This document shows, piece after piece, positions 21,775-49,080 of a DNA stretch of 64,000 nt (the first letter of the stretch is position 1; each line of letters starts with the position of its first letter). The stretch comes from Lytechinus pictus (Eukaryota). The position numbers and the translations under genes were made by a program. The stretch is taken from positions 5,396,001 to 5,460,000 of the forward strand of contig NC_087250.1 of NCBI RefSeq assembly GCF_037042905.1, read 5' to 3'. The notes beneath the pieces were generated by a model, which saw nothing but the letters and a program-made list of their open reading frames with translations, searched no databases and had not been told where the DNA came from.

Positions 21775-24700
21775 AATTTATTTATTTATCTATTTATTTA
21801 TTCATGTTTTATTTATAATAAATGATAAAATAAGGTGGAGGGTAGTTCGGTTCAGTTATAAACTGCTTTACAACGAATCCCTCCCCCTTTACAAACATAA
21901 AATAGAACATAAACATGATAATATATATAAATACAAGTGAAAATCAATATAAAAAGTTATAATCTATAAAATAAACATAAAAAAGAAAACAAATAAACAA
22001 AAAGGAAAGAATACTAGAAGATACTTTGTTATAATAAATGTTTGGCCAATAGGTAACCTCGTTTAAAAGAATTTATAGAATTTGTGGATTGAACTGAAAA
22101 TGGGAGTTTATTAAATAGGGAGCTTGCTTTATAAGATAATGACTTTCTTTTGAATTCAGTTTTGGGGAATGGAATGTCGAGGAGAGAATTTAGTGCATAG
22201 CGGGTACAATATTTAAAGGTGCGATAAGTAATAAGAGATTTTAAATAGTTAGGGGCTTTTACATTAATTATTTTAAATACTAATAAACAGTAGTGATATT
22301 TAAGTCTTTGTTCAACGGATTGCCAATTTAGGGTTGTAAGAAGTGTACACTGCGGTGTGTTATAATCCTTATTTAATATTAATCTTGCATATCTATTTTG
22401 TAATTTTTGTAGTTTGGAAAGATTTGTTTTTGAACAACTTCCCCATGCAGTGCAGCAATAATCAATATGTGGTAAAATTAAAGCAAAATATAAGGTTACA
22501 AGAGTTTTATGGGGTATTAATTGCTTTATGCGGCGAATACATCCAATTGTACGTGATATTTTATTACATATATATCTTACATGGTCAGACCAGGTCAGTT
22601 GCGAGTCGAGTATAACCCCAAGATATTTCATTTTATCAACACACTGCAAGTAGTTATCGTATAATTTGATCTTGAATTGGTGATTATCTAGCTTTCTTTT
22701 AGTGCCGAAAGGCATGACCATGGTTTTCTGTGGATGAATATACATCTTATTAATATCAAACCACTTGCATATTAAATTAAAATCATTTTGTAAATTCAAT
22801 TGAACTTCAGAAAAGTTATGAGAATTGTTAAAAATAACGGTATCATCTGCATAGAGTGAAATCTTGGAATTTTTATGAATTCTTAAGTTGTTAATATCGT
22901 TAATATATAGACAAAAGATCAAGGGGCCAAGGATTGACCCCTGGGGCACCCCTGATTTCATAGTTAAAAACTCACTACAATAATCATCTATATTAACACA
23001 TTGTTGTCTTCCGACCAAGTACGATTTAAACCATTCACGCACCTTATTATTCATACCATAGAAAATTAGTTTATCAAGTATTATTTCGTGTGGAATTACG
23101 TCAAATGCCTTTTTTAGATCATAAAATATAGCTCCCGTAATCTGACCATGATTCATATTTTCAAACAGGTAGTCAGTAATTTCTGTAAGGCACGTGGCTG
23201 TGGAATGGAGTGGTCTGAATCCAGATTGACGTTCCGATAATAAACTATTTTGGTTAAGATACGAATACAATTGTTTGTGTACTGCTTTCTCAAGGACTTT
23301 TGACATAGAGGGCAGTATTGAAATGGGCCTGAAATTGTCAACACTGAGCGAGCCACCCTTGTGAATTGGCGTGATTTTTGCGACTTTGAAATCAGATGGA
23401 AATTGAGAAGTTTTTAGTGATAAGTTAAAAAATTTAGAAAGTGGTTCCGCAATTATATCAGCAGATACTTTTAGTAACTTAGGATGTAGACCGTCCATTC
23501 CTATAGCCTTTTTACAATCAATATTGCGTAGTTCGTTTTTGACAAATTCAGATTTGATTTCTTGAAATTCAAAAGAATAATTAGTTTGAGTTAACGTGTG
23601 TAAATCGTTAAAAGCACCGTCTACTGTGTTGGAACTTGAGCTTGTTTGTAGGTTTGAGCCTACTTTATTAAAAGCTTCATTCAGTAAACCTGCCACCTTT
23701 ACTTTGTCAGATATCATTTCTTCATCAATCAGGATTGTGTTGTTTATTTCCTGTTTCTTTGATGGTAAAAGCCCTTTGAGAACTTTCCAATTTTTATTCA
23801 AATCATTTCCACATTCTGAAAAATTATTCCGGTAATATTCTTTTTTAAGATATTTATTCAAATTATTTGCTCTGTTTCGATAGTACTTAAATTTTTTCCA
23901 ATAATAATCACTTTTCGTTTTTTTGAACTTTTTCTTAAAGAAATCACGGTCACGTTCCAAATTTATGTATTCATTTGTAATCCAAGGTATTCCATTTCTT
24001 TTTCTTCTGACAGAAATAAAAGGTGCATGTTTATCACTTACAGTAGTAAACAAAGATTTGAAATGTGACCACAGTTCGTCAACTTGAACGTTTTCGTTAT
24101 TGAAATCATTCCAGTTTTGATTTTTCAAGTCATCTCGAAATCTGTTTTCATCAAAGTTGCGAAAAGACCTAAATTTACTTATTTTAGAATGAAACATTGT
24201 GTGCTTGCCTTTCACTACTACAAAAGTCAAACAGTGGTCACTAAAACCAATAGAGATTACACCCGACTTAACACTTTCAATCGAATTTGAGGTAAGTATT
24301 AAATCGATGATTGTGCTACTGTGAGGTGTAACTCGTGTGGGGTCATTAATTAACTGGTTAAGCTGATAAGTATGACAAATATCCTTAATTGTTTTAGACA
24401 ATGCATTATTATTACTCATGTTGCAATTGAAATCACCCATCAAAATGATATTATTTGATAATGATATTACTTTTTCAACATTTGCTTCTATGGTGGTAAA
24501 ATAGGTACTTGCTGAGGAAGGCCTCCTGTATAAAATACCAACAAAAATCGAACTGCAATTTTTTCTTTTAATCTCCAGCCACATAACCTCAAGATCTTTG
24601 GTTTCCAGATCTATTCTTCTCATGTAATTAAATTTCTCACTGATGTAACATCCTACACCCCCACCAGAACTTTCCCTGTCTTTCCTTTCAATCTTATAAC

Positions 24701-25370
24701 CATCAATGGATATTATATGGTTTGAACAATCATCGTTCAACCATGTTTTTGATAGTCCTAAAATATCAAAAGGATTTGACATAAGAAATTGTTGCACATC
24801 TGTAATTTTATTTCTCAAACTTCTGATGTTTAGATGAGCTAACTTAATGCCTTTATCATTTGGAAAATCAGTAAGTATATTGTATGCATGATCTTCAACT
24901 TGGGTATTATTTGGAAAATGAGAACAATTCATAACGTAATTTTCTACAGACGGAATACATTCCTGATCCCAAAAGGGAAATTGTTTCAAAATACACACGG
25001 TACACTGCCAGTTTTCGAAAGTTTCGTTTAAATCATCATATTTGGATTTGGGAATTCCCTCGCACACTATATGTGCCCATTTTTCACATGAGGTACATAA
25101 AAGGGCCTTTTGGTTACTCTTTACTGGTTTATTACATTTACTACACGGATACTTGACCATAAAGAGGTGATACAAACTCAAAAGTTGTTGATAAAAAAAG
25201 TAATACCATGTAAACATAAATTACACAAAAAATACACACAAAAAATCTTAAAAGATTGTATATAATAAAATTTGATGAATCAAACAATCAAAGAAAGTCT
25301 TCCTAACAGAAAATAGGCGGTCCATATTATCAATGAAGGAGCTGAAAAACAAAACATAGGAGTTCCGCTT
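21775..25370 (-). mobile_element. Near-intact non-LTR retrotransposon (L2/Crack/CR1 group) with a single long ORF
   Basis: 1062-aa ORF. 3' UTR with a GGAGGG..CCCTCC stem-loop and an (AAAT)n tail at ~21775-21805. 5' boundary approximate. Confidence 0.9.
22029..25217 (-). CDS. PHD finger + apurinic-like endonuclease + reverse transcriptase polyprotein
   Basis: N-terminal CxxC..CxxC..H..C..WxCxxC (PHD). Endonuclease motifs HLNIRSL, GDFN, SDH. RT motifs FRPISIL, QSGFR, DLKKAFD, GVPQGSILGP, YADD, KYLG. Confidence 0.95.
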   Translation of the reverse strand: MFTWYYFFYQQLLSLYHLFMVKYPCSKCNKPVKSNQKALLCTSCEKWAHIVCEGIPKSKYDDLNETFENWQCTVCILKQFPFWDQECIPSVENYVMNCSHFPNNTQVEDHAYNILTDFPNDKGIKLAHLNIRSLRNKITDVQQFLMSNPFDILGLSKTWLNDDCSNHIISIDGYKIERKDRESSGGGVGCYISEKFNYMRRIDLETKDLEVMWLEIKRKNCSSIFVGILYRRPSSASTYFTTIEANVEKVISLSNNIILMGDFNCNMSNNNALSKTIKDICHTYQLNQLINDPTRVTPHSSTIIDLILTSNSIESVKSGVISIGFSDHCLTFVVVKGKHTMFHSKISKFRSFRNFDENRFRDDLKNQNWNDFNNENVQVDELWSHFKSLFTTVSDKHAPFISVRRKRNGIPWITNEYINLERDRDFFKKKFKKTKSDYYWKKFKYYRNRANNLNKYLKKEYYRNNFSECGNDLNKNWKVLKGLLPSKKQEINNTILIDEEMISDKVKVAGLLNEAFNKVGSNLQTSSSSNTVDGAFNDLHTLTQTNYSFEFQEIKSEFVKNELRNIDCKKAIGMDGLHPKLLKVSADIIAEPLSKFFNLSLKTSQFPSDFKVAKITPIHKGGSLSVDNFRPISILPSMSKVLEKAVHKQLYSYLNQNSLLSERQSGFRPLHSTATCLTEITDYLFENMNHGQITGAIFYDLKKAFDVIPHEIILDKLIFYGMNNKVREWFKSYLVGRQQCVNIDDYCSEFLTMKSGVPQGSILGPLIFCLYINDINNLRIHKNSKISLYADDTVIFNNSHNFSEVQLNLQNDFNLICKWFDINKMYIHPQKTMVMPFGTKRKLDNHQFKIKLYDNYLQCVDKMKYLGVILDSQLTWSDHVRYICNKISRTIGCIRRIKQLIPHKTLVTLYFALILPHIDYCCTAWGSCSKTNLSKLQKLQNRYARLILNKDYNTPQCTLLTTLNWQSVEQRLKYHYCLLVFKIINVKAPNYLKSLITYRTFKYCTRYALNSLLDIPFPKTEFKRKSLSYKASSLFNKLPFSVQSTNSINSFKRGYLLAKHLL

Positions 25371-26612: not shown

Positions 26613-27564
26613 CACCTGACCCCATAAACATAGGCCAGTGTGACGCACCCAAGTCTGAATGTAGACTAGGAGTAATAAAGGGTTCGCGGCGAGAGATCAA
26701 ATACACAAACACGGCTTCCCTGTCTTTAAAAGATGTGTCATCGATTGTGAGGGTTTGGGGCACCCAAGGGTTCATTACTAGTCTAGTTCTAGACGATATT
26801 AAACGAATTTATTTGCACCGATATATACGTTCTATTCCGTGCGTACGCCCAGCCGAGTGTGCGCGCAAAACCGAGAACCTGTACTCCGAGAAAATATCGT
26901 CTAGACCAGTTGCTCCGCGGTGACGTCAGAGGTCAAAGGTCAACGGACGAGTGCTCATGAATATGCATGAGTTACTTGTCAATCTCGCTGCGCCGAACAA
27001 CAGTGCAACGTTGTTTACGTTTTCAATCGTTATCAGCTGTGTGCATACATTGTGCACGTGGGATTGATGTAGTAGATCTATGCAGGGACGTGAGCGTCCG
27101 TGATCTATGTGATGTGAATACATGTACATGTATCATACGACAGTTTGAGATAGTTCAAATAGACATTTCATTGTTGGGAAATTACTGTTACATGCATAAT
27201 AGTTATTTCACTCTATGTGCATATCTTGGTTAAATCTGTGGGTATGATGTTACCATCATGATATATGAAAGAAGGTGCTAATGTACCAAATTTCAAACTT
27301 CAAAACAATACAGACTAGTTTTTCCACTTTACTCAGATGGAATAATTAATATACATGTTTGAATGATATATTTTATATTCTTCTTCATCTACACATGTAA
27401 TTACATAAAGGCATTTTGTCTTAGTATGGGTATTGAAAATTCAGACTCATACATGTAATTAAACTCTCATTCTTGTGAATGGATCACATCACGGTACATT
27501 TTACTGTGGGCACTTGTAAATATATCATTTTCAAAGTCTTCTTCACATATTTCACTGTCAAAGA

Positions 27565-29726
27565 CATGGGTGTCGATCACGGGGGGGGGGGGGGGGGTGG
27601 GGGGATATATCCCCCTAATATTTCAAGTGGGGGGATGGCCTGTATTATCATCCCCCCAATAATTTAGGGTAGAAAAATTATAATAATGATGATGAAAAAT
27701 GAAAAAGTATGATCATGATAATTATAGTGATGATTATAGTATGCCATCAATCAGTTTGTTTCCGTCGCAATGTGTGTATATTGTTATTAAATAAAAACAT
27801 TCTTTTCCAGGACTTTAAAACAGATGGGTGGAGGTTCAAGATGACAAAAATTTAAATGTTTATGTATATGATATTTTTAACACATGACATAAAAGGACCC
27901 CGATGAACTAAAAACAACTTTTGTTGATAGGGTGTTCTATCCCACCAGGCAGTGGTGAATAAATACATTTTAATAAATCAATTAATTCAAAAGGGTGGGA
28001 AAATAAACGGGTGGAAAAATAAACGGGAGTAAAAGGGTGGCAAGATAAACAGGGAAAACCCCATGGACGTAAATCCCAGAGGGGTAAATTTTGAAAAAGT
28101 ACAAATAACTTTTCTCAGATTTACCCCTCCCCACATCCAAGTGCATGATGTTTGTTCCATTTAATCTACAACCCTTTTGTATATCACTTCATTTTTGTTA
28201 TGTAAAATAAGTAAATCGCCAGGGATCGCTGTCATAAAAAGTTATTTGCAATGAGGTCTGACATGAGGCGAAAGATTTTCGGACATTATTGAGACTACCT
28301 GAAATAGATGTTGTTCTATTTCACCTTTTTCTTATTCATTCCCAGAAAATTCAGAGAAAAAGAAAAATACCTTTGCGTTTCTATAGAGTATAGGCTTATC
28401 ACTTCATTTATTTGCCTGGTTATACACACTTTACCGATGTATGTCATGGTAGTTATATATTAAGTTCGGCATTCAGTAACTTGAACAAGAAAATATACCA
28501 AAAGCAAGATGTGCACAAAACGAAAGTCACCCCTTCTTGTATATCCAAATACCTTGACTTGAACGATAACTTTTGGTCAATAATATTTTGCAGGAGAGCA
28601 TTGATGTCCTCATTACCTATCTATGTGGAAATGAGGTGCCTATTGTCATGAAAGAGTGAGCCCACATCAAATGCAAAAATTTCACTTTAAAAAAGTCATA
28701 ATGGTCGTTTGGTGATCAGTAGCTCATATATGGTGCCTTTGTTGTATGCGGTTGGATGTAATTGATATTAAAACATTTTATCATGTGACCCCATCAGATA
28801 CCTCTCATGAAAATATTGAGGTTCAGTGAGCTCAATATAATATGATCATATTTTTACAATTTTTTTAATAAGTGAAATCAATTGATGGTTTCAGAAAGAA
28901 TAATCTTTCATTCTCTTATAAAGCGGATGTGAGGATATGAACATCGGATGTTTTTGTCATGTTATTCTTGTTATTGTTATGGACTTGAATAACTAAACTT
29001 GATTATTTTTTTCTTATTTTGGCAAAAAGAAATATCTTTTGAGTTTGGAAAGGGATGGCAGTTTTACATTCTATATGAGCACACTCATGCGGTACGTAAA
29101 TTTCATTTTAACACATAATGTATATTAGCTGATATTACACACTGATGGTTCAAGAAAATGTTGGAGAAATATCATAACATGACAGTTGAGTTTTGATTGT
29201 TTTAATGTTTGTTTTTGTTTCATGCACTTATAAAGTATTTAAAACATGTTAAAATCCAGGGTTAAAATCGTCTAAGGAATGACGGTAAGCCCGATGGCAC
29301 ACGAGAAGCCACACAGTTTGTAATTTGTGCTAGTCTTATATTTTTTGTCCGAATGTGCATTTTATCATCATGCATTAAGAAGAAAAAAAGATATTGCCAG
29401 TCGGGTTAGATTTAAGAGAGAAGTTGTATACATCATGCTCAATAAACATATCACTTTGTACATGGTCCAGACAATTTTTGGCATTTTTCTTTCGTATGGG
29501 TTTATAATAAGCTTACTTGTAACACAAATTGAATTTAAAAAAAATTTAAATAAGTAAAGTACACTGCAACAATTAAGCAATTTCCAAAAACACCATGCAT
29601 ATCAACCACTCTCAAATGTCCTAACTTGTAATTTTAGTGGGGGTAATGTTGAAAGATCCCCATCCACAAGAACATTTGTGTCAATCACCCCCCCCCCCCA
29701 ACCAAGAATACCGATCGACACCCATG
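27565..29726. mobile_element. Non-autonomous hAT element (~2.2 kb)
   Basis: TIR CATGGGTGTCGATC / GATCGACACCCATG with 8-bp TSD gtcaaaga/gtcagaga. Confidence 0.85.
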
Positions 29727-30203
29727 GTCAGAGAGTATGACAAAAAGGGTTGAGAAGTACATGTACTTTGTACAGATTAGTACAGAGCTGTGAAAGGGAT
29801 AAGGAAAACAGAATAAAAATCATTATTGATTTTTAAAAGTAGATTAATCTCACAAATGTGGATTTTGATGCGTGCATCAGATTTTGGAAGAAAATCTTTG
29901 CAATTGTCCTTGGAATTTTTAGTTTATTTATTTACTTTACATGAACATGTAGATAATGCGTACAATTATTTTTGTTGTTCAGCTACATTATTATCTAGCT
30001 ACATGTAGCCAGGAAATGATATTGCTAATGATGTACATGAAGCCTCTTCGATAAAGACCCTGACCGGTGTAAAACAATCATATATTAAAATAAAGGTAAT
30101 GATTCTTCCAATAGTTAAACATATTAAATAAAAATCAAAGAAACTACTCCTCCAAAGTACGCTTCGATTGAGCACCCCCATGTCGCCTGGAAATGATGAC
30201 GTC

Positions 30204-30265
30204 CAGTGGCGTACCTATAGGATTTTCCACAGGGGGGGCAAAATCGGCCGCCAAAAAATTTGACA

Positions 30266-30299
<34 letters not shown>

Positions 30300-30538
30300 T
30301 CTTCAATTAAAAAATGAAGGTTTTCGTACCACAAAAATTTGACAAGCAAAAAAAAAAAAAAAGTCTTCGAGTTCATCAGGGGGGCGATAAAGGTCTTCAA
30401 GCTGGTCAGGGGGGGGCAAAAAAAGGTCTTTTAAGCTCGTCAGGGGGGGCAGGTAAATGTCTTTTGTATGGGTTGTGACTCGTCAGGGGGGGGGGGCAGA
30501 GTGCCCCCCTGCCCCCCCCCCCCGTAGGTACGCTAGTG
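30204..30538. mobile_element. hAT-like MITE (same family as 53894-54228 and the fragment at 33660-33864)
   Basis: CAGTGGCGTACC...GGTACGCTAGTG with exact 8-bp TSD ATGACGTC. Confidence 0.85.
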
Positions 30539-32845
30539 ATGACGTCACGTTGTGTCAGGAGGGTTGTGATTCTGTAGGTTTGTGTACAAAAGCATTGGGT
30601 ATTTTCTTCCATTTTCATGTTATGAATCCATTTTTTTTTCGTTTTCAGATGAAAATGGCACTCTAAATTATTCACTGTTCAAATTGTTGTAAACCTACAA
30701 CTATTCACTACCTTTTTTGTGATTTCTTTGTTTGGCTCTTATTGGGCCTAAATTGCTATGTCAGGAAAAGTTATTATACATAATCTAAATGCAGATAGAA
30801 TTGAAATTTGCGCCAAGTAAGCAGGAAATAAATATGGCAAAAACTAGTTCAAAACTGTAGATTTCATAAATTCAAGCTTGTGGGTAAAAATATATGTGAT
30901 ATCCCTCTGTGATAGAAGTGAAGAGAATGAAATGCGTTATCTGGAAAGCAAAAAAATCACCCAGTGTTTCTGTGTACAAACCTATGGAATCACGACGCTT
31001 CTTACACAACGTGACGTCACGGTCTCGAGGCAGGTGAAAAGCACAATAAAGCCTATTTTCTAAGCGGGGTTCGAAGCCCGATAATTGGAATATTCTTAAG
31101 CAAAATACTCAGCTGGGAAGCGGTGAAAATTAATATAGCATACCTTGCTGTATTTAGTAGCTTATAAGCTTTCGATTGGTATATAATTTATCAATTTCAT
31201 TTTCGGGTCCGGTCTGGATCTATAAATAAAGGCACCTTTTCTCATTACCTTTGAAGTACAGTATTTATGAAATATATTTTTTGCAGCCATTATGAAAGAG
31301 CATTATGTTCAGATCTACATGTACCTTGCCAGTTAATTAAATTGCTAGTAACTATTCCATTGCAGTGTAACTTTTACATGTAGTTTGCATAGGCGGATCC
31401 AGCTTTTGGCGAAAGGGGGGGGGGGAGGGGTACCGCCGAGCGGCGCACATATTTTTGCACTATAAATGAAAATGTTGAAAAAGGGGTAAAGTCAAATTCA
31501 ATTCAAATTAAAATTCATTTATTTCACTTCCATCAAACAAAAACAAATTGTATACTTACCATATATAAACATAAATATTTGTATCCGTTGCAAACAAAAT
31601 TAATAATACATTTGTTGTGAAAAAAAAAACACTTAGACGATTTGGGCAACACATTGTAAGTTTTAAATATATATACTATTTTTCAATAGAAATTAAATTA
31701 AGATGGAAATGGAGGAACCCACTAAAAAGCAATGCTTGTACAATGTGGGCCCCTCAAGATATAGATAACACAACAAATAACAAAATAACAAAGTATAAAT
31801 ACAGATAATCAAATGAGAAAAGAATGAATAAATGAGAGGGAAATACTCACAAAATAAATACAAAGTAATCAAAAATATACAGTTTGGTGAAGGACAAAAC
31901 AACCCGTCCTAAAAATATCTACCCTTCCCACCCCCCAGAAAAAGAGAAGAAAAAAAAGGGGGAGAATGCCCTGAGAAGATTGATGGGTGCTGCTGTACGT
32001 AGATATAACACATGCCGTCGTGGACTCAAGCAAACTGGATTCAATGATGTGTATAAAAGGAGAAAAAATATATAAAATAACCTGGAAAGAATATAATGCA
32101 CGAAAAATGTGATTGATGCCGTTAAACAAATAACCGGTAGAAATGCGGATAAGCGGAGAGGAGAAAATAGAGGAGAGGATAGACACAATAATGAGCACAT
32201 CTGAGAAGGACTTGTGTCAGATTTTTTTTTTTTTAATAAAAAAAGGATAATAATTATTTTATGTTTTAATTGTAGTTTAAAGTAATGATGACTTGACAGA
32301 AGTCTGACCCTGTCAAATGCTCTTTTCAAAATGTAGGATTTCCAGTCATGCCATTTTGCATGACCACACGCAGATAATATTTTCGGGGGGGGGGGCAAAT
32401 CTCGAACATATTTTTGAAAAATAAAAATAAAAACGATAGAGTAAACGGACCGAGCTGCTCATGTGGCGATTATTTTTTTTTATAAAGTGTAATAAAAGTA
32501 TTTGGTACACATCTCACATTTGCAAATTTTTCATAGTTTTCATGAAATGTTAAGGGAAAAAATGTGTTTTCACAACAACTGATCGGGAATTTCCCCCCCC
32601 CCTTCCCCCTTGCTGCGTACGACCATTCCCTGAAGTCCACTTAAACATATATCATTACAACATAAAATATACATGAATTTAGACATATAATCTTTCTTAG
32701 ACATATATAGAGAGAGATTGAAAAACTTATTAAAGAAAGAAACAAGCAAAAAGTAACACAAAATCTCGTGTACTAACCCTTTTATTGCGATGAGGCCGAT
32801 ACTTGTGTATATTAATTGAGATGCAATTTTTTTACTATATATACA

Positions 32846-33655
32846 CAGGGGCGTCGATATTTTTTTTCACATTGGGGGGGGGGGGGCAAAATCATGAATC
32901 AACTTTCCAACGGCGCTCGATCACACAAAACAAACAAACTCACACACACTCATATATATATATATATATATATATATAACTATATATATATATATATATA
33001 TATATAGCTGAAATTTTTTAGTAAACTGACCTGAAAATAGGAAAAAGGTGCCTTTTAAAGACTGTTTGTAGTAACTCATGAGGAGAATACATATCTCACT
33101 ACACAGATAATGCGAGTGCCGAGGGCGAGCTGAAATTTCTTTATATTCTGACCAGAAAGCTTGATATCCTCTGCATTTTGGTACCTATGATTAAGATGGG
33201 TATCTAAAAAAGACAAAACATGCGAGCGCAAAGCGCGAGCTTAAAATTTTGATATTTCGATCTGAAAAAAATGACAGTTTAATGGACGTTTTTAATAAAG
33301 AACAAGATTATATCCAACAAAAGATTATTGCAAATCGAAGCGGGACTTCTTTTGAGGTTAAGAACTGAGAACGGGACATTCTATTCACCTATTTAATCAT
33401 GAAAAGTGTGGGGTTTTGCTACAGAAATGGTACGAGCGCGAAGCGCGAGCTGAACATTTTTGTATTCCAATCTGAAAAGCGGACAATTTGAGCACGATTT
33501 TAAACAAAGAACGAGTTGTGTAGCTCAATATCGCTTGCTGATTTCTGTGTAACATTACCATCTTATTTTATTTTTGTACATGCGGAATTATTGGAGGAGG
33601 GGGGGGGGGGGAAACGATATGTTTGCCCCCCAATTATTTCTATTGGTGGGGCGAA
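32846..33655. mobile_element. hAT-like MITE carrying a (TA)n microsatellite; same family as 49081-50251 in opposite orientation; one end lost
   Basis: CAGGGGCGTCGAT start, GCGAGCGCGAAGCGCGAGC internal repeats, shared body sequence. Confidence 0.75.
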
Positions 33656-34089
33656 GGACTATCTTGGCCCCCTGACGAGCTTGAAAAAAAAGCCTTTTTT
33701 GCCCCCTGACGAGCTTGAAGACCTTTTTTTGTTTTGCTTGTCAATTTTTTTTCCAGGTACGAAGTCCTTTATTTGTGATTGAAGACTTTTTTTTTTGCTT
33801 GTCAATTTTTTTGGCGGACGGTTTTGCCCCCCCCCCCCTGTGGAAAATTCTAGGTACGCCACTGTTTAAAGTGTTATACTGTACGTACAAATATGACCGA
33901 CTTGTGAGTTTTGTTTTGGTCATGGTTCTTTATGATTTTTTTTGTTCCAGAGAGAGTTTACTCAGTCCACTTCGATATATGCAAAAGGGAGACAATTACT
34001 GTATTCTTGTTCTACTGCAAATTCCAATTATTGTTTGGTCAGCCATATTATGAAAGAACAGTACATTTCAGACCAAACTTGCCAGATAA

Positions 34090-34676
34090 AGGACAAGTCC
34101 ACCCCAACAAGCTGACTTGAATAGATAAAGAAAAATCAAACAAACATAACTCTGAAAATTTCATCAAAATAGGATGTAAAATAATAAAGTTATAACAATT
34201 TCAAGTTTCGCTTAATTTTTCAAAACAGTTATATGCACATCTTAGTCAGCATGCAAATGATGATATCATTCACTTACTATTTCTTTTGTATTTTATTTTA
34301 TGAAATATGAAATATTTAGATTTTCTCGTCATTGTCTGTTAACAAAGTTTCATTCCTCCCTGAACACATGTAATTCCATTATTCTAACATTTTGTGGTTC
34401 GAGCAAAGGGGTACTAATATTGTCGAATTCGTAAAAATTGAAATATTGTATTATTCAAACAAAAACAAAAGAAATAGTGAGTGAGTGACATCATCGTCTC
34501 TCTCATTTGCATATCACCGAGTTGAGTATAGAACTGTTTTGTGAAAAATAAGCCAAATCTTAAAATGTCATATCTTTCTTAATTTACATCCGATTTTGAT
34601 GAAATTTTCACCATCATTCATGTTTGATTTGTCTCTATTTATTCAAATCATTTTTTTTCTGGGGTGGAATTGACCT
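34090..34676. mobile_element. Kolobok-like MITE
   Basis: (A)TAA|AGGACAAGTCCACCCCA ... TGGGGTGGAATTGACCT|TTAA with long imperfect inverted arms. Confidence 0.75.
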
Positions 34677-34937
34677 TTAATGACTTTGCCATTATTTTCC
34701 TGCTATATATTACTGTCATGCGAACAAAAGAAGCAACTCTGTGGAACAAGTTTATGAGGAACTGTGTAAAATTGTCATTGTCATTTTATATGTGGAAATA
34801 TAGAATTTCTTGCTTTTTAAGTGACTCCATTTAGGAAACTTGGGGCCATGTGACTTCAATTAAACTGGCATCATGAAGAAATTACATAATTAACCCAAAT
34901 CAAGGGGAGTGTCAATTTTGAAGGATATAAAGTTGCT

Positions 34938-35105
34938 ACCCTCTTTCCATATATACCCAGTAGGTATATTCAAGAAGACATCGTGGCCTCGGAGGAAACT
35001 TTCGAGAGCTTTGTTCTGTAGGATCTTCAAAGTCGTTGTTCCCAACTGTTTGGACATATGCAGGATGGAATCTCTGATAGAATGACGTTAATTTCCCGTC
35101 GCCAT
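34938..35105 (-). pseudogene. RecQ-like helicase N-terminal remnant (Q motif + motif I)
   Basis: MATGN*RHSIRDSILHMSKQLGTTTLKILQNKALESFLRGHDVFLNIPTGY, then GK after a 4-bp ATAT insertion. Confidence 0.85.
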
Positions 35106-37009
35106 CACACCATATATGAAAAAAAAACGAAGATAAGCGATCAGGACTTGTCTGATTTGGTAAACACGCAAGAAACTGAATTTGGAAACCGCGTGCTGTA
35201 TAATTATGTATAGGCCTACAGTACACAATACAACCAGGGAGTTGGGAGTCTCCCTGATACAACAGCACGGTAGACGGTACAGTACACAAGTCTATGGCTT
35301 ATGTTGTGCTGCTTTGTGCGATCCGATTGATTATGTAATCCATATACGATAGTCTACGCTCAAAAACCTTATTGTAGGTATCAGGGGAAACATACACGAT
35401 ACGATTCATTTATGATGTTTTTGTGTGTTTAATTTGATTTCTTTTATAAATTATTTACAACAAAAAGTCCTTTCTTAGGTAATTAATATTCATTTTATCG
35501 GTAGATCACACCATATTTCTCAACCCAGCAATCTTCCCTGCTGTTAACAAAGACTAGCAGCTGAACGGGAGGCGTGTCCACTTTTAACGACTTTCCCTAA
35601 AAAATCTGAGGGAGTGACGTCACCGCGGAGCAACTGGTCTAGACGATATTTTCTCGGAGTACAGGTTCTCGGTTTTGCGCGCACACTCGGCTGGGCGTAC
35701 GCACGGAATAGAACGTATATATCGGTGCAAATAAATTCGTTTAAAATATCGTCTAGAACTAGACTAGTTCATTACATGCCGCCGCGCACAGAAAAATCAA
35801 GCCATAGAAGTCGTGTGTTGTGGACCCAAGAAGTGAGATCCCAGCACGCGCGACCCACTAGTTAGAAATCCACTGCCAAACGCGGTTCGTGGTGCGAGGT
35901 TAGTATACTAATACTAACCTCGCAATACGTGTGAGTGGGTTTGGGGCGACTTAGGAGTTGGAGAAGTTTAGGTTCTTGTGTGCTGAGATGTAGAGTTGGT
36001 CCTGGCCACGTAACATATTTGGGACCTTGTCCAGGAGTCGGAAAACAAGCCAGTTTTCTTGTCGAGGTAGTTCGTTTTCGTATTCCGTATACCGGTTATT
36101 ACGTACAGTACATGTAGTATAATGCGCGACCGATAGCGCTGCGTGTAGTTACGTGCATGTTCTGTGCATGTGTGTGTATGCACGTTTTGTGTGTGGAGCG
36201 TTTCGTTGGGCTCGTGTAGGCGACGGGTCACGCTCAATTAATCAATGTATCAATGCGCGAGATGAAACTTGTCGATATTCCATTCTGAAAAAGGGACAAT
36301 TTATCATTAAATTAATTAATTAATCTAATAAGCCTAATCAGAGCGCGAAATCTGTCAATATTATAGCCTGAAAACTGGCCATTTAAAGCACTTTTGTAAT
36401 AATGAATAAGATGCATGAGTTAATATATTTTTAACAATCAATGTGCGTGCATATCGCCAGCTGAAAATTGCTGATTAACTGTCATAAAATGGAGATTTTA
36501 AGTAGTTTGTTATAGAATTAATATTTAAATTTTTATAACTCACCAATCAAAATGCGAGCATGCAGCGCTAGCTGATCCGTTTTTACAATCTGACATGAAT
36601 AGGGATATTTTGATAACTATATGGAATACAGGAAAATAATAGGTGCCTGAAAATCAAATTTTGTGAGCGCACAGCGCAAGCAGAAAATGTTAATATTCAG
36701 ACAATAAAAAAGACATTTTAACAGAACACTTTTTTTAAATGAAAGTTCGATTTCCGAGCTGAAATATGTTATGTATATTGACTTCAAAATTTGATATTTA
36801 AAGTTCCATATATGTAAATCACCTAAAAGGTAATGCGAGCGCGAAGCACGAGCGAAAATTGTATATAATGACATGAAAGATTTTTTTAAATTGTTTTCGA
36901 AGTCTTCCCCTCATCTTATTTATTCACTCGTTTTCCTCCTCCCAATAGGGGGAGGAGGGAGGGCGGACCCCTTGCCCACCACTGGATCCCTTGGATCCAA
37001 CTCTGGAAC

Positions 37010-40537: not shown

Positions 40538-43103
40538 TCCCGACCTTTCGTTGGAGAACGCGAACGTTTATTTATTACGACGGTAGTTGATTTAGGAAGA
40601 GACTTTTGGGCCCGTCGTCATGGTCGTAAAACTCTGTCCCGCAATAAAAATTGTGTGACATGATATTTTTTTTCGTTTCGCATCTGGAACGGAAACATTC
40701 AATTAGCGTTTCGTGTGCAAAGTTCTGGTTGCCACTATGGTAACAGCGATATATCCGATTTAGGACGACTTTCCAGAGCCACATTTGGTTCCTCCCAGAG
40801 CTCGAGAGGCCGCCCGGGGGGGCCACTTCCATTAACGAGTGGATACCATTCAGGCGCGACCACGCGTAAAAAAGTGAAAGAGTGGGCAAGTACGTTACGT
40901 ACAGGCCTATGTAACGTTATAAGGGTGTCAAAACGATGATTAAAATACTGAAAAGAGGGATATATTTCTAATATTTGTAGGGTTTCACAAGCCAAATACT
41001 TGTTAAGAGATGCTTTTTCATAATCTGGAAAAACCCCATGGTCGCGTCTGGTATCCACCCATCATTGGAAGTGGTCCCACCCCCCCCCCCCCCCGAGAAT
41101 ATGAATCTAATCCCCATTTCCGTAGAGAGTAAAACATAATGCCCATTACATTGTGTGCTAGGAGCATATCGTTTGTGTAGGAGAAGCAGGCAAAAGAAAA
41201 AACCCCGCAAATTTGGATGTTGTTCAGACGTATTATGACCTATTGCATAATGCTGCGTACATATCATCGCATGCGAAATGGTTTCGACTGGAGAGGTGAT
41301 CTGACCCATGGAATCCATTGCCAGTGATCCACCAATAATCCACATTAAATGCAATATCGATTCGATGGAATGTATTAATCTATATATAAGCCTTAATTCA
41401 GTAAGTTTTTCCTCACTCATTATGTACTCGATTTGTTTGAAAAATCACTTTCTTATCCATGTCATAATCTACATTTCGCATGTCTCCAGCCAGCTGGAGT
41501 CATGATAGCCATGGTACAGGTAGAGTCCCGCCGCGAGCTCAGGCACGCATAATATGCCATGAAGCCCAGCCGTACATGCATGAAAGTGGGATTTCAACAA
41601 TTTGGGATGGCATGCTGGTATCGCATGAAATAATTTTGCACACGAAAAGCAGATCTGTAGGGCCTGTAACACGAAGCTTAGCGATGATTGTAGAATAGTT
41701 TCCTACGTTTGATTCTATTGACTATGATGTACAATCAATCTTAAAAATCAAGTGTATGATTTATCGTTAACTTTTGTGTTAGGAGACCCTAACGTTTCCG
41801 TCCCTAAGGTTTGCGAAATGTGGCAATTATGCGTTGGTGCGACATAAGGCACCTTTCGCAATCCTCTACAACGCGAGATTAGAGTCGGGTAACTCAAAAG
41901 TTTACGATTAATCATGGACTCGATTTTCAGATTGATTGTACGTTACAGTCAATACAATCAAACGTAGAAAACTGTTCTACAATCATTGCTAAGCTTTGTG
42001 TTACAGGCCCTATAGATCTTGCTTTTCGTGTGCAAAGCTCTTTCATACGATACCAGCATGGAGCTATAATAGCTCTATGATACCAGCATGCCATGCCATT
42101 TGCCTGCCTGAGCTCGCGGCGGGACTGTACCTGTATCATGGCTATGACTCCAGCTGGCTGGAGACATGTAGATTATGACATGGATAAGAAAGTGGTTTTT
42201 CAGACAAATCGAGTACATATTGAGTAAGGAAAATCTTACCGAATTAAGGCTTAGATATAGATCATTACAGTCCATCGAATCGATATTGCATTTAATGTAC
42301 ATTATTGGTGGATCACTGGCAATTGATTCCATGAGTCAGATCACCTCTCCAGCCGGAACCATTTTCGCATGCGTTGACATATACACAGCATGCAATAGGC
42401 CATAAACCGTCTGGAAAAACATCTAAATTAGCGGGGTTTTCTTCATTTGCGTGCTCTTATACACAAACGATATGCCTCTAGCACACAATGTAATGGGCAG
42501 TATGTTTTACTTTCCGCAGAAATGGGGGATGTCCCGGGGGGTACACTTCCGTTGATGAGTGGATACCAGGCGCGACCATGGGGTTTTGAAAAGCACCATA
42601 AACAATGGAAGTAAGTCTTTTCCAGATTATGAAAATGCATCTCTTAATTATTTGGGTTGTGACACCCTACAAGTATTGGAAATATATCCCGTTTTTCAGT
42701 ATTTTAATCATCGTTTTTGACACCCTTATAATGCTACATATGCCTATACGTAACGTACTTACCCATTCTTTCCCTTTTTACGTATGGTCGCGCCTGGTAT
42801 CCACTATTCAATGGGAGTAGGCCCCCCGGGCGGCTTCCCGAGCTCTGGGAGGAACCACAAGTGGATTTGGAAAGTCGTCCTAAATCGGATAAATCGCTGT
42901 TACCATAGTAGCAACCAGAATTTTGCACACGAAACGCATATTGAACGTTTCCGTCGCAGATGCAAAACGAAAAAAAAATTCATGTCACACAATTTGCATT
43001 GCAGGACAGAATTTAACGACCATGATGACGGGCCCAAAAAGTCTCTTCCAAAATCAACTACCTCCGTAAATAAGCGTGCGCGTCCTCAAACGAAAGGTCG
43101 GGA
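40538..43103. mobile_element. ~2.6 kb imperfect palindrome (fold-back element, or two inverted copies of one repeat)
   Basis: tcccgacctttcg.. at 40538 mirrors ..cgaaaggtcggga at 43103. The arms stay alignable for ~1.25 kb to a centre at ~41790-41890. Confidence 0.85.
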
Positions 43104-43481
43104 TTATCGGTTGTAACAGGGCCGAGGAGTCAGTAGGCCTCGATCCGAGTTCCCGTGTAGCACGCTAAGCTATATGGAGGGAGATTGTTGGAAAGGGTCC
43201 ATAAAAGAGGTACAATATCTTACATGAATAAAAAAAAAAAAATCAAACTCGGCCCTTGCCCTTCTCCAGGATTCCTTGCATCTCTTTTACTCTTGGAGTG
43301 CTTTCAGATTCATGACATAAAATTCCTGAAGTAAACCGGATGGGCTATCCTTTGCGTCGTCATTCAGGTTCGATAATCAACGTGTCTGAAGTTAGATGTA
43401 CATGTACGTAGGGCATGCAACCGTGCATGCAGCTGCGGTATCAGCAGCCAGCCGTCGCTAGCGAGCTAGCCGGCTAACCAT

Positions 43482-44366
43482 TTGCCTCTTGTCGAGGCCC
43501 TGATGGCTGCTTCCCGAGCGAAGCAGAGCGCAGCGAGCCAGGGCCTCTTGACATCTGAACCAAATTTCACCGACTTTCTTTGTTTTACTGTTTTTACCAA
43601 TATGCCGACCAAAAACTGGTCGGTGAAAATCATCCAATGAGAGCGTGGGCTGCTACGACGTCATATTGAATATTCATGAGCTCATCTTGAATGGCGACCC
43701 GTGGATTCTGGGCGAAGCGTGAGGACAAAATATCAAAGAGCACTGAATATACCTCAAAATGCTGAATATATTGACCGATTTAAGGATTTGCAAGTCGATG
43801 TAATTAAATCTGCAAAGCACGAGATTTTTTGTTGTTGTAAATCTACCCACAGGATATGGAAAAAAATAATTTTTCATGCGATTCCACTATGCGTCGATTA
43901 TCGATCTCCACGGTGTAGAGAGAGAGAATGTTAGAGTCGGGTTGTTCAGTTGGCAGGTTGGTGCTTCCCCTTGACTCGAGTCTGACCAGGCCGATCTCCC
44001 GGGAAGTTTCGGGGCGGTGATGGGTCTATTATGGCTACGGCTAGTAATCAGTAGTGGTAGTAGTAGTACCACTACTTGTAGCATTTTGATTGTTATGTCC
44101 CCTTTAGTGTCCCGCAATTAAATGAATCCCCTGCAGAATAGTGGACTACTAGTACTAGTATTCCGAACCCCGGACGAAACAGCTTTGACATTTCATTGGT
44201 TTACTAGGTGACCGGTAATATTCATGACTCATGTATATTCATTGGGAAGACGTTCCTCATGAATATATAATTCAGCTCATATGTCAAGAGGCCCTGGTTC
44301 GCTGCGCTCGCCAGGCCTAATTCGCTTCGCTCGGGAAGCAGCCGCCAGGTCCTCAACAAGAGGCTA
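43482..44366. mobile_element. Non-autonomous AcademH-like element
   Basis: TIR T(T)GCCTCTTGTCGAGG / CCTCAACAAGAGGCTA with exact 9-bp TSD GCTAACCAT. Internal RecQ remnant. Confidence 0.88.
43770..43900 (+). pseudogene. RecQ-like helicase N-terminal remnant
   Basis: RFKDLQVDVIKSAKH / FVVVNLPTGYGK / IIFHAIPLCVDY across two compensating frameshifts. Confidence 0.85.
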
Positions 44367-44403
44367 GCTAACCATTGGCGCATCGTGCATGCTGCGTCCG
44401 GTG

Positions 44404-45042
44404 TAACCCAGGCCGCTCCGGCCAGCGAAGCGGGTCGAAGCCCAGGAGCTCACCGTGCATTTACTCATACTCACGGGACTAGGGTAGATTGTGGTCACAA
44501 TAACTTGGAAATAAAATTGTGAAAACAGAAATTATGCACCACGATTATATGGATGAAGGTCTATGGTGTGGCAGTATCCTGACATCGAGGCACAGACTGG
44601 AACCTCAAAAAAAAAAAAAAAAAAAAAAAACCAAAAGTTCTGTCGCGGTAGCTCTCCTTCTTTCAAAATTCAAAACAAAATGGCCGATCGAGACCGAGGC
44701 TATAGCACTAGCGCATATAGACTTGGTCAAATTCGCGCACGCGCCCTACACCCGAGGTACCGGTCTCGAAAGGCCATTTTGCTATGAATTCTGAAAGAAG
44801 AAGAGGTATCGCGACAGAACCTTTCGTTTTTTTTTAAGGTTCCAGTCTGTGCCACGATGTCAGGATGCTGCCACGCGATAGATCTTCATCCATAAAATCG
44901 TGTTAAGTGCATAATTTATGTTTTCTCAATTTTATTTCCAAGTTATTGTGACCACAATCTACCGTAGTCCCGTGAGTATGAGTAAATGCACGGTAAGCTC
45001 CTGGGCTCCGGCCCGCTTCGCAGGCCGGAGCGGCCTGGGTTA
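44404..45042. mobile_element. Almost fully palindromic non-autonomous element with 9-bp TSD (AcademH-like MITE)
   Basis: TAACCCAGGCCGCTCCGG / CCGGAGCGGCCTGGGTTA, arms ~290 bp, exact TSD CGTCCGGTG. Confidence 0.85.
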
Positions 45043-45119
45043 CGTCCGGTGTAATTGTTAGCTCTACGTATAACATTCGACGATACTGCGCATTCGCCAT
45101 TACGTATTCATGAATATCC

Positions 45120-45564
45120 TAGCCTCTAATCTAGGCGGAGGCCGCAGTTATTGTCTTTGCTGTTAAGCTGAACGCAAGCGACACGTCTTATCTGGCAAAC
45201 ACTACGCATTGTGGTTGCGTTAGCAGCCACGGCCTATACACTCCTGTTTGCTCAACCAGTATTTATGTATTCATCTCGTCGTTTGACGTGTTGTGGTACC
45301 GAGAACCATACCGATACCTGTACCGCTGTCGTGTGCCAACGACTTGAGATAAAAAAAAAGCGAAGATATTATCGTTACACAGAGGGATTGCCTGGTAGAT
45401 TTCACTTTTTCCACATACCTCCCGTCGTCAACAACGCTACGAATGGCATACTCTTAAAGGTCTCGGAATTTCTACTAGAAATTCGGAGTTTATCGGCAGC
45501 ATAATTCAAACTCTCGCATAAGATTCTCGCGTGTAACTGCGGCCTCGGCCTAGATTATAGGCTA
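45120..45564. mobile_element. Non-autonomous AcademH-like element
   Basis: TIR TAGCCTCTAATCTAGGC.GAGGCCGCAGTTA with its inverse ending at 45564. Exact 9-bp TSD TGAATATCC. Confidence 0.88.
45376..45472 (-). pseudogene. RecQ-like helicase N-terminal remnant with internal deletion
   Basis: KFRDL*EYAIRSVVDDGRYV / GKSEIYQAIPLC, homologous by eye to the 43770-43900 remnant. Confidence 0.7.
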
Positions 45565-47497
45565 TGAATATCCACGATGTCATACTTGATACTTGATACG
45601 ATAATTCCTCTTGCAGCTCCAAAAAAGCTAAACTGGAATTAACTTTGTAATATGACGTGAAACATTGCTGTCATCGTGAAGATGTCTATTCTACAATAAA
45701 AGGAGAGTGCCATGTGCAAGTGCGATGTCATAATGAATATGCATGAATCAAACGGAGTTCTAATATCAATTTATTTTCTAACTTTAGAGGGCGTTAACAA
45801 AAAGTTATCGGTGTGACGAGCAAAAATAATATGCATTGCACCCCTCAATATCATGAAAACAGAAGAGTAATACCAATTTCTTTTAAGTGATAAAGTAGAG
45901 ATTTGATATAATAATGAATATAATATCTTTACAATTGATTCACTGCCCCTGTCTGAGATTAACCAATCGTACTCTATACCTTTAATATGTGACAACAAAG
46001 GTATGTTCTCGACGGATAATCACAGGAAGATCACTCCAGAGAATAAGGGGCCAGCACGTAGAAAAGTCAGTGCCCCCATGTTTTTTTAGATTTGGAAACT
46101 AGAAAACCTGAGGGGATCGAACGTATGTGATAACAGTATTTGATTTATGTGAACGTAGTTGAATAACTCCCCTCCCATTTCGTTCTGCTAAATTTTGGAT
46201 TGTTGCTTGAGTAACTGATCGTAATTACTTACCGAGTGCAAATAAGGTCCCGAAAACTCCCAGAACAACTCCAGCTATGTCTTGACTTGACATCTGTATC
46301 TCTTTAAAATAAACCAAAAATGAAATATCCGTATTATTCGTTTTAACTAAGACTTTTTAAATTACAAAATCGAACGATTCATATTATTAATATTGCATAA
46401 TTCTTAATTGACTCGAATTTGATGAGTACGTGTATGTGTGTATGAGAGACGTGATTGGCTCTCCCACGTTAAGCTCGAATTATGTGCAAAACATATTGCG
46501 ATTTTGCTTTCCTTCACACTGTCACTGAATACTTTTATCACAGAATGGAAGAATACCCAGAAGTTTATTTAGATTTGGATTTCGATATTGATTCTTAAGA
46601 AGAAGAAATTGATGGAGATTCTTTCTTCATTAACAAAGACAAAGTAAATCAAAAATTGTATCTCTTTCATTACTAGATATGAAATCGTGTCAACAATTTT
46701 TGTGTATTCAGAAAAACAAGATAAAAATACATATATAAATGAAACAACTTTCCCTAGACAATGCACTCACCGGTCAGAACACTAATTCCGCATTTGCGCA
46801 AACATCTTCAGCCTACTGTATATTCAACATTAGGGAAATCCTTGCAGAAGTACTTTAATATAAAAATTGGTGCATGTCACAACAAATATACACAACCATA
46901 TTAAGCGATACATAACTATGGGAACATTTGATAAGTTACTTTTTGGTCTATTAGTCCGGTCTGTTAGCGTCAAAAACACCCTACTTGTGGACACGGTGGA
47001 CAAAAGCATGATTTTTTCTCCAGACCTTTGTTTATGTATAAGAATTAAAAATGGGGTATGCTCCAAAAAATCTGGCTGCAGGAACAGTGAAAAAATTGGT
47101 AAAAATATCAGAATTTACGAGTATAGATTGGTCCGATATTTATTTATTTATTTAAAAACCTTTATAAAGGATAAGCATGTTCAGATAATATATACACTGT
47201 TTTTCAACATGGTCCTGTTGACATAGTAAACATCTAAAAATGTACAGCGATATATAGACGATATATAGACTAGCACTAGTGCAAAACTCAATAGCAGAAA
47301 TAAACACTCTTAAAATAAGCATCCCCTCAAGGACATAGGCTGGGGGTACACTGGGTGAATGTGAAACCTACGGCTGTGGCAAAGGAGTTCCAACACTGGC
47401 ACGCAAAACGAATGTGTACCCCTTCTACTTTCAACGGCTGATTTTCCAAACCTTAGTTCCACCTCCCCAAGATGTGCACCCCTCCCCATACCACTTT

Positions 47498-47535: not shown

Positions 47536-49080
47536 TTACAAGAACTGCTGGAACGTAAGATTATAAAGAGGTCAATTAGCTCCTATGCCAGTCTGATCGT
47601 TCTTGTGAGGAAGAAATCAGGGGCACTACGTTAATGTATTTATTATTGACAATTGCACACGGTAACAGTCAAATACTCCTTTCCGCTACCCAGAAAAGAC
47701 AAATCATGAGAAGTAATGAATGGAGCCAAATACCTCTCCTCCCTTGACTTGTCTCGTGGATATTTCCAGATCACTATACATACAGAACCAGTGCCCCTAA
47801 CTGCCTTTCGTGTCACCTAGGGACTCTATGAATTTGAAGAACGCCTCATGGTCTATGCAACAGCCCATTCACATTTAAGAGAATAATGGATGCAACTTTC
47901 GGTGACATAATCTTTACACAATTCATACCCTACCTTGATGATGTTTTGGTCTTTTCCAGAACATTTGAGGAGCACCTAGAAGCATTAAGAGAAGTCTTTG
48001 ACCGGCTAAAAATACATGGCCTGAAGTTGAAAGGCGGAAAGTGCCAGTTCTTCAAGAAGGAAGCAGTTCACCTAGGGCACATTGTCACTGAGACGGGTGT
48101 CATGGTAGACCCAAGCAAGGTATCAAGGATCAAATCGTGGCCTGTACCTCAAAATGGATCAGAATTATGGTCCTTCCTCGGTCTTGCTTCATATTACAGA
48201 ATGTTTGTCCCTGAATTCACCACAATAACAGCACCACTCCATGCACTAACTGGAGAGAAGTGTAAGAAAAAGAGGAAGACATGGGATATTGCTCCAGACA
48301 AAGTTTTGTGTGGACCGAAGAGGCAGACGAGTCATTTCATGAGCTTAAGGAGAGACTGTTTTCAACACCAGTTCTTGCCTATCCGAAGTTGGGAGAAGAA
48401 TCTATACTCGAAATTGATGCATCTCTTAAAGTGCTTGGTGCCTACTTGATACAGAAATATGGCAATGGACATTTACATCCTATCTCGTTTGTAAGATGTA
48501 GCCTAAGTGGAGCCGAGAAGAATTATCCTGATTTCTCAAGCTTCAAGATAAAACTTCTTGCCCTTAAATGGGCAGTAGTCGAGAAGTTAAAATGTTATTT
48601 GCTGAGTGTATTGTATACACGGATAAGAACCCTCTAGTCCACCTTCAAACTGCACAGTTAGGACCACTGAACAGAGGTGGGTAGCTCAGCTGGCAGCCTT
48701 TCATCTTGATATCAGATACCGTCCTGGAAAACTCAACATATGTGCCGATGCACTCAGCAGGTGCCCTAGAAATGATGAGGGCAAGGTGAAAGAGATGATC
48801 GAAGCACTGACGATGACTACTGTCCTCACGGCAGAAGTTGTAGTTACCGGCGACCAGTTTGCAGACGAGGAGCCGCCGAGAGTTCCGGGATTGTAACCAC
48901 CAAACACAGTAGAAAAATTTGAAACTCTTCAACAAAGTGACAATGCAATTTCTGTGTGCTGACGTTATCTCAGGTGTGAATGGAAGTCCGAGGGTGAAAT
49001 CAAACAAGAGAATGCAGAAAAATAAAGCACTGGTTGAAGGAGCGAGCAAGCATTGTAGAATACAAGGGAGTCCTGTATAA

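Follow-up and report, generated by a model that had tools for sequence, protein, structure and literature searches.

We analysed 64,000 nucleotides of the genome of the sea urchin Lytechinus pictus (NCBI RefSeq assembly GCF_037042905.1, contig NC_087250.1, positions 5,396,001 to 5,460,000 of the forward strand), called the window below, in which three short transposons with terminal inverted repeats (TIRs), E1, E2 and E3, lie almost end to end. It is quite probable that these are non-autonomous derivatives of three AcademH families, piled up at one motif-rich segment of an older repeat by a shared target preference. The window appears to hold new members of AcademH, namely three non-autonomous families, or four when an element of 8,988 bp in the same window is counted.

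Three transposons inserted into one older repeat

A preliminary description of this DNA, made from its sequence, had given coordinates, TIRs and exact 9-bp target site duplications (TSDs) for E1, E2 and E3, all of which we found as first read, together with the spacing of 37 bp between E1 and E2 and of 77 bp between E2 and E3. All three TSDs are exact 9-mers. The elements and the repeat that hosts them are listed here by their positions in the window.

43473..43481, no strand assigned: left TSD copy of E1, GCTAACCAT, with the right copy at 44367-44375; single in the host-repeat paralogs L048 and L049
43482..44366, plus strand: E1, 885 bp, non-autonomous, with TIRs of ~85-98 bp (43482-43566 and 44269-44366) and the TSD GCTAACCAT
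44404..45042, no strand assigned: E2, 639 bp, a foldback element bounded by TAACCCAGG...CCTGGGTTA, with the TSD CGTCCGGTG at 44395-44403 and 45043-45051
45120..45564, minus strand: E3, 445 bp, with TIRs of 31 bp in the window copy and the TSD TGAATATCC at 45111-45119 and 45565-45573
43118..45985, no strand assigned: older interspersed repeat hosting all of the insertions, with paralogs ~1.2 kb long elsewhere

Two paralogs of the host repeat, L048 and L049, represent empty sites. In both of them the left flank, the two spacers and the right flank form one contiguous sequence that contains each 9-mer once, and for this reason we regard E1, E2 and E3 as true insertions. The host repeat has 187 first-look candidates in the genome, the size of which is 811 Mb, and a scan of this repeat and of the surroundings of the cluster against Rfam gave no match. 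Once the insertions are removed, the host target segment measures ~160 bp and is rich in GC dinucleotides. The arms of E2 are 87-95% complementary, which makes its foldback nearly complete, and the window copy of E3 has lost internal sequence relative to its family, the members of which are ~730 bp long with 133-bp TIRs. The three elements had also been credited with shared TA-type termini. This holds for the E1 family, which begins with TAG, and fails for the E1 copy in the window, which begins with TTG.

A fourth insertion is present in the same repeat:

45585..45722, no strand assigned: 138-bp fragment from a different repeat family, between two copies of the 10-bp direct repeat CGATGTCATA at 45575-45584 and 45723-45732

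It starts 11 bases past the right TSD copy of E3 and is missing from both L048 and L049. The family to which it belongs has 85 candidates at ~90% identity, the other copies of which extend further 3', and no inverted terminus was found for this family within 1.6 kb.

The elements belong to three multi-copy families

Genome-wide searches returned 692 first-look candidates for the E1 family, 1348 candidates for the E2 family and 226 for the E3 family. A 19-nt pattern taken from the E1 TIR matched the genome 526 times in forward and 521 times in reverse orientation, and its reversed control matched 0 times in either. TSDs were counted after excluding loci where the patterns caught one terminus only. 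For the E1 family an exact 9-mer flanked three of the four complete pairs among loci L002-L008 (L007 had none), and likewise 5 of the 10 loci L032-L041. The E2 family had exact TSDs in all three complete pairs and additionally at L022; in the E3 family they were exact in six of eight complete pairs, the remaining two agreeing at 8 of 9 bases. These are distinct multi-copy families, as had been proposed, and 9-bp TSDs occur in their other copies as well. Altogether 25 insertions with an exact 9-bp TSD were collected, with empty sites seen for 3 of them, and TIR lengths across the elements range from 31 to ~290 bp.

Among the matches listed for the E1-type TIR, many pairs on G000:C1 and C2 are only 98-173 bp apart and are TIR-only miniatures. 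The same matches include a group of E1 copies at C2:10577318-10591470, three in 14 kb; two of them score identically, suggesting local duplication.

E1 and E3 carry remnants of a transposon helicase

The preliminary description had recognised RecQ helicase remnants hidden by frameshifts in two of the elements, and both were recovered:

43691..44148, plus strand: frameshifted remnant of helicase exon 1 in E1; it opens with the start codon (MATRGF...), includes the Q motif and Walker A, and ends at motif Ia (..SPLVS)
45371..45521, minus strand: degenerate remnant of helicase exon 1 in E3 (..LNYAADKLRI.., GKSEIYQAIPLCND)

The E1 remnant, the presence of which was correctly noticed at first, has a longer span than was then described, reaching from 43691 to 44148. 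In a tblastn comparison it matched exon 1 of the helicase at locus L044 with E=3e-21. The window copy of E3 matches a transposon helicase exon over 14 aa (79%, E=6e-4), and five of the eight E3-family copies match this exon with E values of 2e-5 to 2e-3; the best-scoring copy, L012, shows 39% identity over 56 aa (E=2e-5).

P0001, an open E1-family copy at another locus, served for comparison with three helicases. P0001 matched the transposon helicase with 60% identity over 138 aa (E=8e-48) and a stand-alone 'RecS-like' helicase of Diadema with 46% identity (E=2e-17), compared with only 33 aligned aa and E=7e-7 for BLM-type RecQ. Since the E1-family peptide is far closer to the transposon helicase than to BLM-type RecQ, the objection that such peptides might match host RecQ genes better fails.

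When an 84-aa E1 peptide was searched against the genome it gave 151 matches, every one in a frame of at most 145 aa and 0 at five multi-exon RecQ loci. A word-index protein search returned no longer relatives of this peptide. Ten loci with longer E1-type frames were considered as autonomous candidates and rejected, being only E1-type copies, some of them with nested insertions (L039, L040).

A full-length relative encodes a helicase and a DUF6589 protein

A genome search for the RecQ family returned host genes with several exons and, distinct from these, several compact helicase loci, and one of the compact loci led to a full-length relative of E1 at G000:C10:32259752-32276882. This element is 17,131 bp long. 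Its 112-nt TIRs are 100% identical and the 9-bp TSD GCACTCCAC is present on both sides. Its helicase, on the plus strand, is represented by two open frames (197 and 452 aa) that match the Pfam families DEAD (2.5e-9), Helicase_C (3.6e-16) and RecQ_Zn_bind (9.6e-8), and begins ~240 bp from the TIR, the same place that the remnant occupies in E1. The second gene is multi-exon and convergent to the helicase, and its frames match DUF6589 (6.7e-26 and 1.4e-8). No XPG, MULE or other transposase domain was detected by Pfam in the 30 frames of the element that were scanned.

Positions 52-632 of E1 align to the 5' part of the 17-kb element with 74% identity, and positions 631-849 align to its 3' part with 80% identity. 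On the basis of these two alignments we consider E1 to be an internal-deletion derivative of such an element, made up of 632 bp of the 5' end and 255 bp of the 3' end.

Related arrangements were found elsewhere in the genome. A second convergent pair on C5 consists of a DUF6589 gene at C5:55934781-55937861 (plus strand) and a helicase at C5:55955091-55957430 (minus strand), ~17 kb apart; matching element ends were not found in the 4.5 kb examined. Locus L043 on C18 is a helicase-only element of 4,471 bp, with a TIR that begins TAGTCCAG and the TSD CTCTATCCT. A second intact-looking helicase, L042, was rejected as a full element as it has no TIRs within 8 kb. The window itself contains one more element of this kind:

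26779..35766, minus strand: 8,988-bp element with a TIR that begins TAGTCTAGTTCTAGAC, perfect 16-nt termini, the TSD GTTCATTAC and, at 34953-35105, a remnant of the N-terminal part of a helicase

The rest of the 8,988-bp element had no Pfam match. The same helicase start has thus been kept in four TIR families, those of E1, E3, the 9-kb element and L043. The search for autonomous parents was successful in part: an element with E1-type ends that carries both the helicase and DUF6589 was found, and none was found for E2 or E3.

DUF6589 resembles the Academ transposase

The DUF6589 frames on C10 agree at 99% identity with a RefSeq model of L. pictus that is 778 aa long, and relatives of the protein are present in Strongylocentrotus and in a brittle star. 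This genome gave 16 DUF6589 matches among 33 candidates. The family as a whole comprises 4264 representative clusters at E<=0.001, and the nearest ESM Atlas clusters are also DUF6589, mostly from molluscs. A profile search of solved structures with the DUF6589 protein identified an internal C2H2 zinc finger only. When the protein P0122 was aligned with 44 relatives, D225, N226, D377, D660, E664 and K671 were observed to be near-invariant.

The gene appears to be spliced, as judged from assembled contigs. A 2,652-nt contig from run X1 joins four DUF6589 exons with 0 differences from the locus, and a 1,737-nt contig from run X3 shows the identical three joints, the RNA label of these runs being a guess. 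The three skipped stretches end in CT..AC on the plus strand, which corresponds to GT..AG for a DUF6589 gene on the minus strand. The genome keeps at least one intact-looking relative with both genes, which is apparently transcribed. Within a DUF6589 intron, positions 7820-8703 of L045 show extreme depth in all four runs, with joints that connect opposite strands, and are a highly repeated, apparently transcribed element.

According to Muszewska et al. (PMC5751038, supplementary file 1), the RNase-H-like domain of Academ had no Pfam match in 2017, and a hidden Markov model (HMM) of it was published there. We compared nodes 1-40, 143-168 and 424-465 of this HMM by eye with the 45-protein DUF6589 alignment, and four blocks of similarity were identified:

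Start block: HMM nodes 3-9, D N w D i k P; P0122, DNVDVKVKP
After-start block: HMM nodes 16-29, d-x5-h-x5-a; P0122, D-x5-H-x5-A
Middle block: HMM nodes 158-167, s a a d i l t v r r; P0122, SGGDLLTCER
End block: HMM nodes 447-462, v h l D e a l E q l i v r d l K; P0122, VELDRENEHHNRIFK

In the HMM, D3, N4, D450 and E454 are invariant and D6 is strong. The conserved residues of DUF6589 align, by eye, with D3, N4, D6, d161, D450, E454 and K462, and the span from the first D to the E is 451 HMM nodes as compared with 439 residues in P0122. The order of the blocks, their similar spacing and a length of ~450 residues are common to the Academ RNase-H domain and DUF6589; the two differ before the last D, where the Academ HMM has g-w-a-y and DUF6589 has WNR.VN...G. 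These motifs provide good evidence that DUF6589 is a probable homologue of the Academ RNase-H transposase, in which case it would be the protein that performs the cutting. Academ has been published from rust fungi and bivalves, and a link to DUF6589 fits that distribution. The literature that we found on DUF6589 mentions it without any tie to transposons.

Assignment to AcademH

PMC10045372, citing Kojima 2020, gives TSDs of 9 or 10 bp for AcademH and of 3 or 4 bp for AcademX, and PMC10799480 ascribes DEAD and Helicase_C domains to AcademH. The elements described here combine DDE motifs that are Academ-like by eye, a superfamily 2 (SF2) helicase inside the element, 9-bp TSDs and TIRs. Since a helicase and an Academ-like transposase occur together with TIRs and 9-bp TSDs and without an XPG domain, AcademH is a fitting label. 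The AcademH-like reading of the preliminary description is borne out by the finding of a RecQ-like helicase and DUF6589 between 112-bp TIRs with a 9-bp TSD, and by the match of the DUF6589 motifs to the Academ profile. We therefore consider the interpretation of E1, E2 and E3 as AcademH-type derivatives to be well supported at the level of sequence. For E2 the assignment would follow from the length of its TSD, from the TAA at its terminus and from the target motif described below.

Like AcademH elements, which occur in animals and fungi, the present ones would move by TIR cut-and-paste with a helicase beside the transposase. They differ in that most of them, in this sea urchin, are short deletion derivatives present in high copy number, and in the 17-kb length of the full element and the introns in both of its genes. 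AcademX, provided that the motif match holds, would belong with them to one transposase superfamily; it has an XPG nuclease and, according to PMC10045372, TSDs of 3 or 4 bp, in contrast to the 9 bp and the 30 XPG-free frames of the 17-kb element. KolobokH and Helitron, both named in PMC10799480, likewise encode helicases. The elements of L. pictus have a 9-bp TSD without a TTAA consensus, long TIRs and a RecQ-like helicase. By comparison, the TSD of Kolobok is the 4-bp TTAA, and Helitrons have a Pif1-type helicase and neither TIRs nor TSDs.

A different identity would be that of Mutator-like elements (MULE/Rehavkus), with the helicase pieces being fragments captured from host genes as in Pack-MULEs. 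MULEs make TSDs of 9-10 bp, so that the TSD length fits; long TIRs are common among them, and the coding remnants found here are short and frameshifted. Against this, the sole transposase-like gene between the E1-type ends of the 17-kb element is DUF6589, and its 30 frames contain no MULE domain. Its helicase is complete and open and begins exactly where the remnant sits in E1, one and the same helicase start is kept across the four TIR families, and the remnant is far nearer to the transposon helicase clade than to BLM-type RecQ. We consider a Mutator-like origin highly improbable.

Several observations count against the assignment to AcademH. The 17-kb copy is only 74-80% identical to E1 in the window, which makes it a relative of that element instead of its direct parent. 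There are ~6 kb between its two genes and repeats in its introns, and that it moves as one unit is suggested by its perfect TIRs and its TSD. E2 yielded no coding remnant, and parent elements were found neither for E2 nor for E3. The link between DUF6589 and Academ is a by-eye, unscored motif match over part of the HMM; in the end block of P0122 the R and the K are one residue nearer to the E than in the HMM (K462), and this offset of the K detracts from the match. Finally, none of the runs with spliced contigs is on record as RNA, and two raw RNA runs, ~6% of each of which was read, contained no reads of the DUF6589 exons.

A palindromic motif flanks the target sites

The preliminary description had also suspected a shared target preference, and such a preference was observed. 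We aligned the flanks of the 25 exact-TSD sites, which come from E1, E2, E3, the 9-kb element, L043, the insertion in L049 described below and the 17-kb element. The 9 duplicated bases show little preference, and the flanks show a palindrome of the form GC-nn-[9 bp]-nn-GC. On the left flank C occurs at -3 in 19/25 sites and G at -4 in 14/25; on the right flank G occurs at +3 in 14/25 (with A in 10) and C at +4 in 14/25. When both flanks are treated as half-sites, C is found at -3 in 33/50 (background 0.19, p=3.6e-13), a pyrimidine at -3 in 48/50 and the dinucleotide GC in 20/50 (background 0.035, p=1.3e-16). Each family taken separately shows an excess of C at -3, with 14/20 half-sites for E1, 8/10 for E2 and 7/14 for E3.

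The motif also predicts sites that were held out. A position weight matrix (PWM) was built from 20 sites outside the window, and the remaining sites were ranked against all positions of the window emptied of its insertions, with the following percentiles:

E1 site: 99.64
E2 site: 99.97
E3 site: 92.2
9-kb element site: 96.4
L049 insertion site: 99.96

The GC-nn-[N9]-nn-GC flank is thus common to all three families.

Sequence preference and the clustering of the elements

The 160 positions of the target segment are 0.30% of the emptied window and hold 5.4% of its PWM weight, an 18-fold enrichment; the highest share of any segment of equal size in the window is 5.8%. A paralog of this segment on another chromosome was struck independently. 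L049 (G000:C5) contains at 327-1454 a TIR element of its own, 1,128 bp long, with termini AAGTCCAC... and the 9-bp TSD CTGATACTG, inserted ~35 bp from the position hit by E1. The motif would thus be a cause of the pile-up.

It could be argued that the packing is a coincidence in a transposon-rich stretch and reflects neither a hotspot nor a shared preference. The window is indeed rich in transposons, as three long open frames with reverse transcriptase (22029-25220, 7615-9033 and 47838-48449), the first of which also has endonuclease and PHD domains, are retrotransposons resembling long interspersed nuclear elements. Moreover, the cluster was selected post hoc, the E3 site is only moderate for the motif, and no second family lies near any of 28 other copies within 1.5 kb. 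Chance has to contend with the numbers: for ~2,100-3,200 elements in 811 Mb inserting uniformly, three within ~150 bp are expected ~1e-3 times per genome. The motif in the flanks has high statistical significance and predicts held-out sites, PWM weight is enriched 18-fold in the target segment, the paralog of this segment in L049 was hit independently, and a fourth insertion lies 11 bases past the right TSD copy of E3. Taken together, these points make coincidence unlikely.

A cause other than sequence, such as tethering of the transposase to a resident element, open chromatin in the germ line, or a site that is fragile or forms hairpins, is somewhat easier to entertain, though we still regard it as improbable. 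Under the PWM alone, P remains ~1e-3, the fourth insertion is of a different kind, and neighbours of the same family do occur. A tandem E1-family pair at L033 2971-5377 (G000:C11) has the layout CCCCAACCC-element-CCCCAACCC-element-CCCCAAGCC, with one 9-mer between the elements and a triplicated target, as if the second element had struck the TSD of the first; at L039 two E1-family copies lie 64 bp apart. Cross-family tethering is not expected, since the TIRs differ, and none of the 28 other copies has a neighbour of another family. The insertion in L049, at a different chromosomal place, favours sequence over chromosomal context.

Shared target preference remains our preferred explanation of the cluster, and three results limit how far it reaches. 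The E3 site ranks lowest of the five held-out sites. The PWM model gives P ~1e-3 for three of four insertions in one segment, and the motif therefore explains much of the pile-up, probably not all of it. Lastly, a second family within 1.5 kb was found at 0/28 other loci of these families, which means that side-by-side packing is not a general habit of these elements.

Two other structures in the window were considered as elements of the same kind and rejected. The stretch at 41276-42364, flagged by a scan for TIRs plus TSDs, is a palindrome of 1,089 bp with TCGCATGCG on both sides; it consists of two inverted copies of an abundant unit of ~530 bp, which has 2243 candidates at up to 97% identity. 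The stretch at 15694-16203 is a palindromic repeat tangle. A control with reversed sequence carries no weight here, as both kinds of repeat survive reversal.

Proposed mechanism and significance

We propose that the autonomous element is bounded by long TIRs beginning with TAG or TAA and encloses two convergent genes, the gene at the 5' end coding for a stand-alone RecQ-like SF2 helicase and the other for a multi-exon DUF6589 protein that would be an Academ-type DDE transposase. Internal deletion would spare both ends, and in E1 and E3 also the first part of the helicase gene. The transposase, supplied in trans, would bind these ends and insert the element through a 9-bp staggered cut, and may favour GC, or at least a pyrimidine, 3-4 bases outside the stagger, giving a target of the form 5'-GCnn[N9]nnGC-3'. 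In an AT-rich genome, the GC-dinucleotide-rich segment of the older repeat would offer several top-ranking sites side by side, and families with different TIRs could therefore have piled up there.

A broader proposal can be put forward tentatively, as one that may well prove wrong: that AcademH transposases read a palindromic 17-bp target and so have hotspots coded in sequence, that a possibly active two-gene element persists in this genome, and that the Academ transposase can be reached in Pfam through DUF6589. What might be new here is the palindromic target motif, together with the link between DUF6589 and Academ. A sea urchin genome paper reported 100 Academ copies, amounting to 0.01% of the genome (PMC11316814); as at least ~2,000 candidates were found here for the three non-autonomous families by themselves, standard annotation probably files most of them as unknown.

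Academ is among the least studied superfamilies of DNA transposons. If the link to DUF6589 is true, its elements can be found with Pfam. The intact two-gene copy, with its spliced contigs of guessed RNA origin, is a candidate for the first mobilisation experiments in the superfamily, and could reveal the role of a RecQ-like helicase in cut-and-paste transposition. The target motif, in turn, provides a testable rule for where such elements land.

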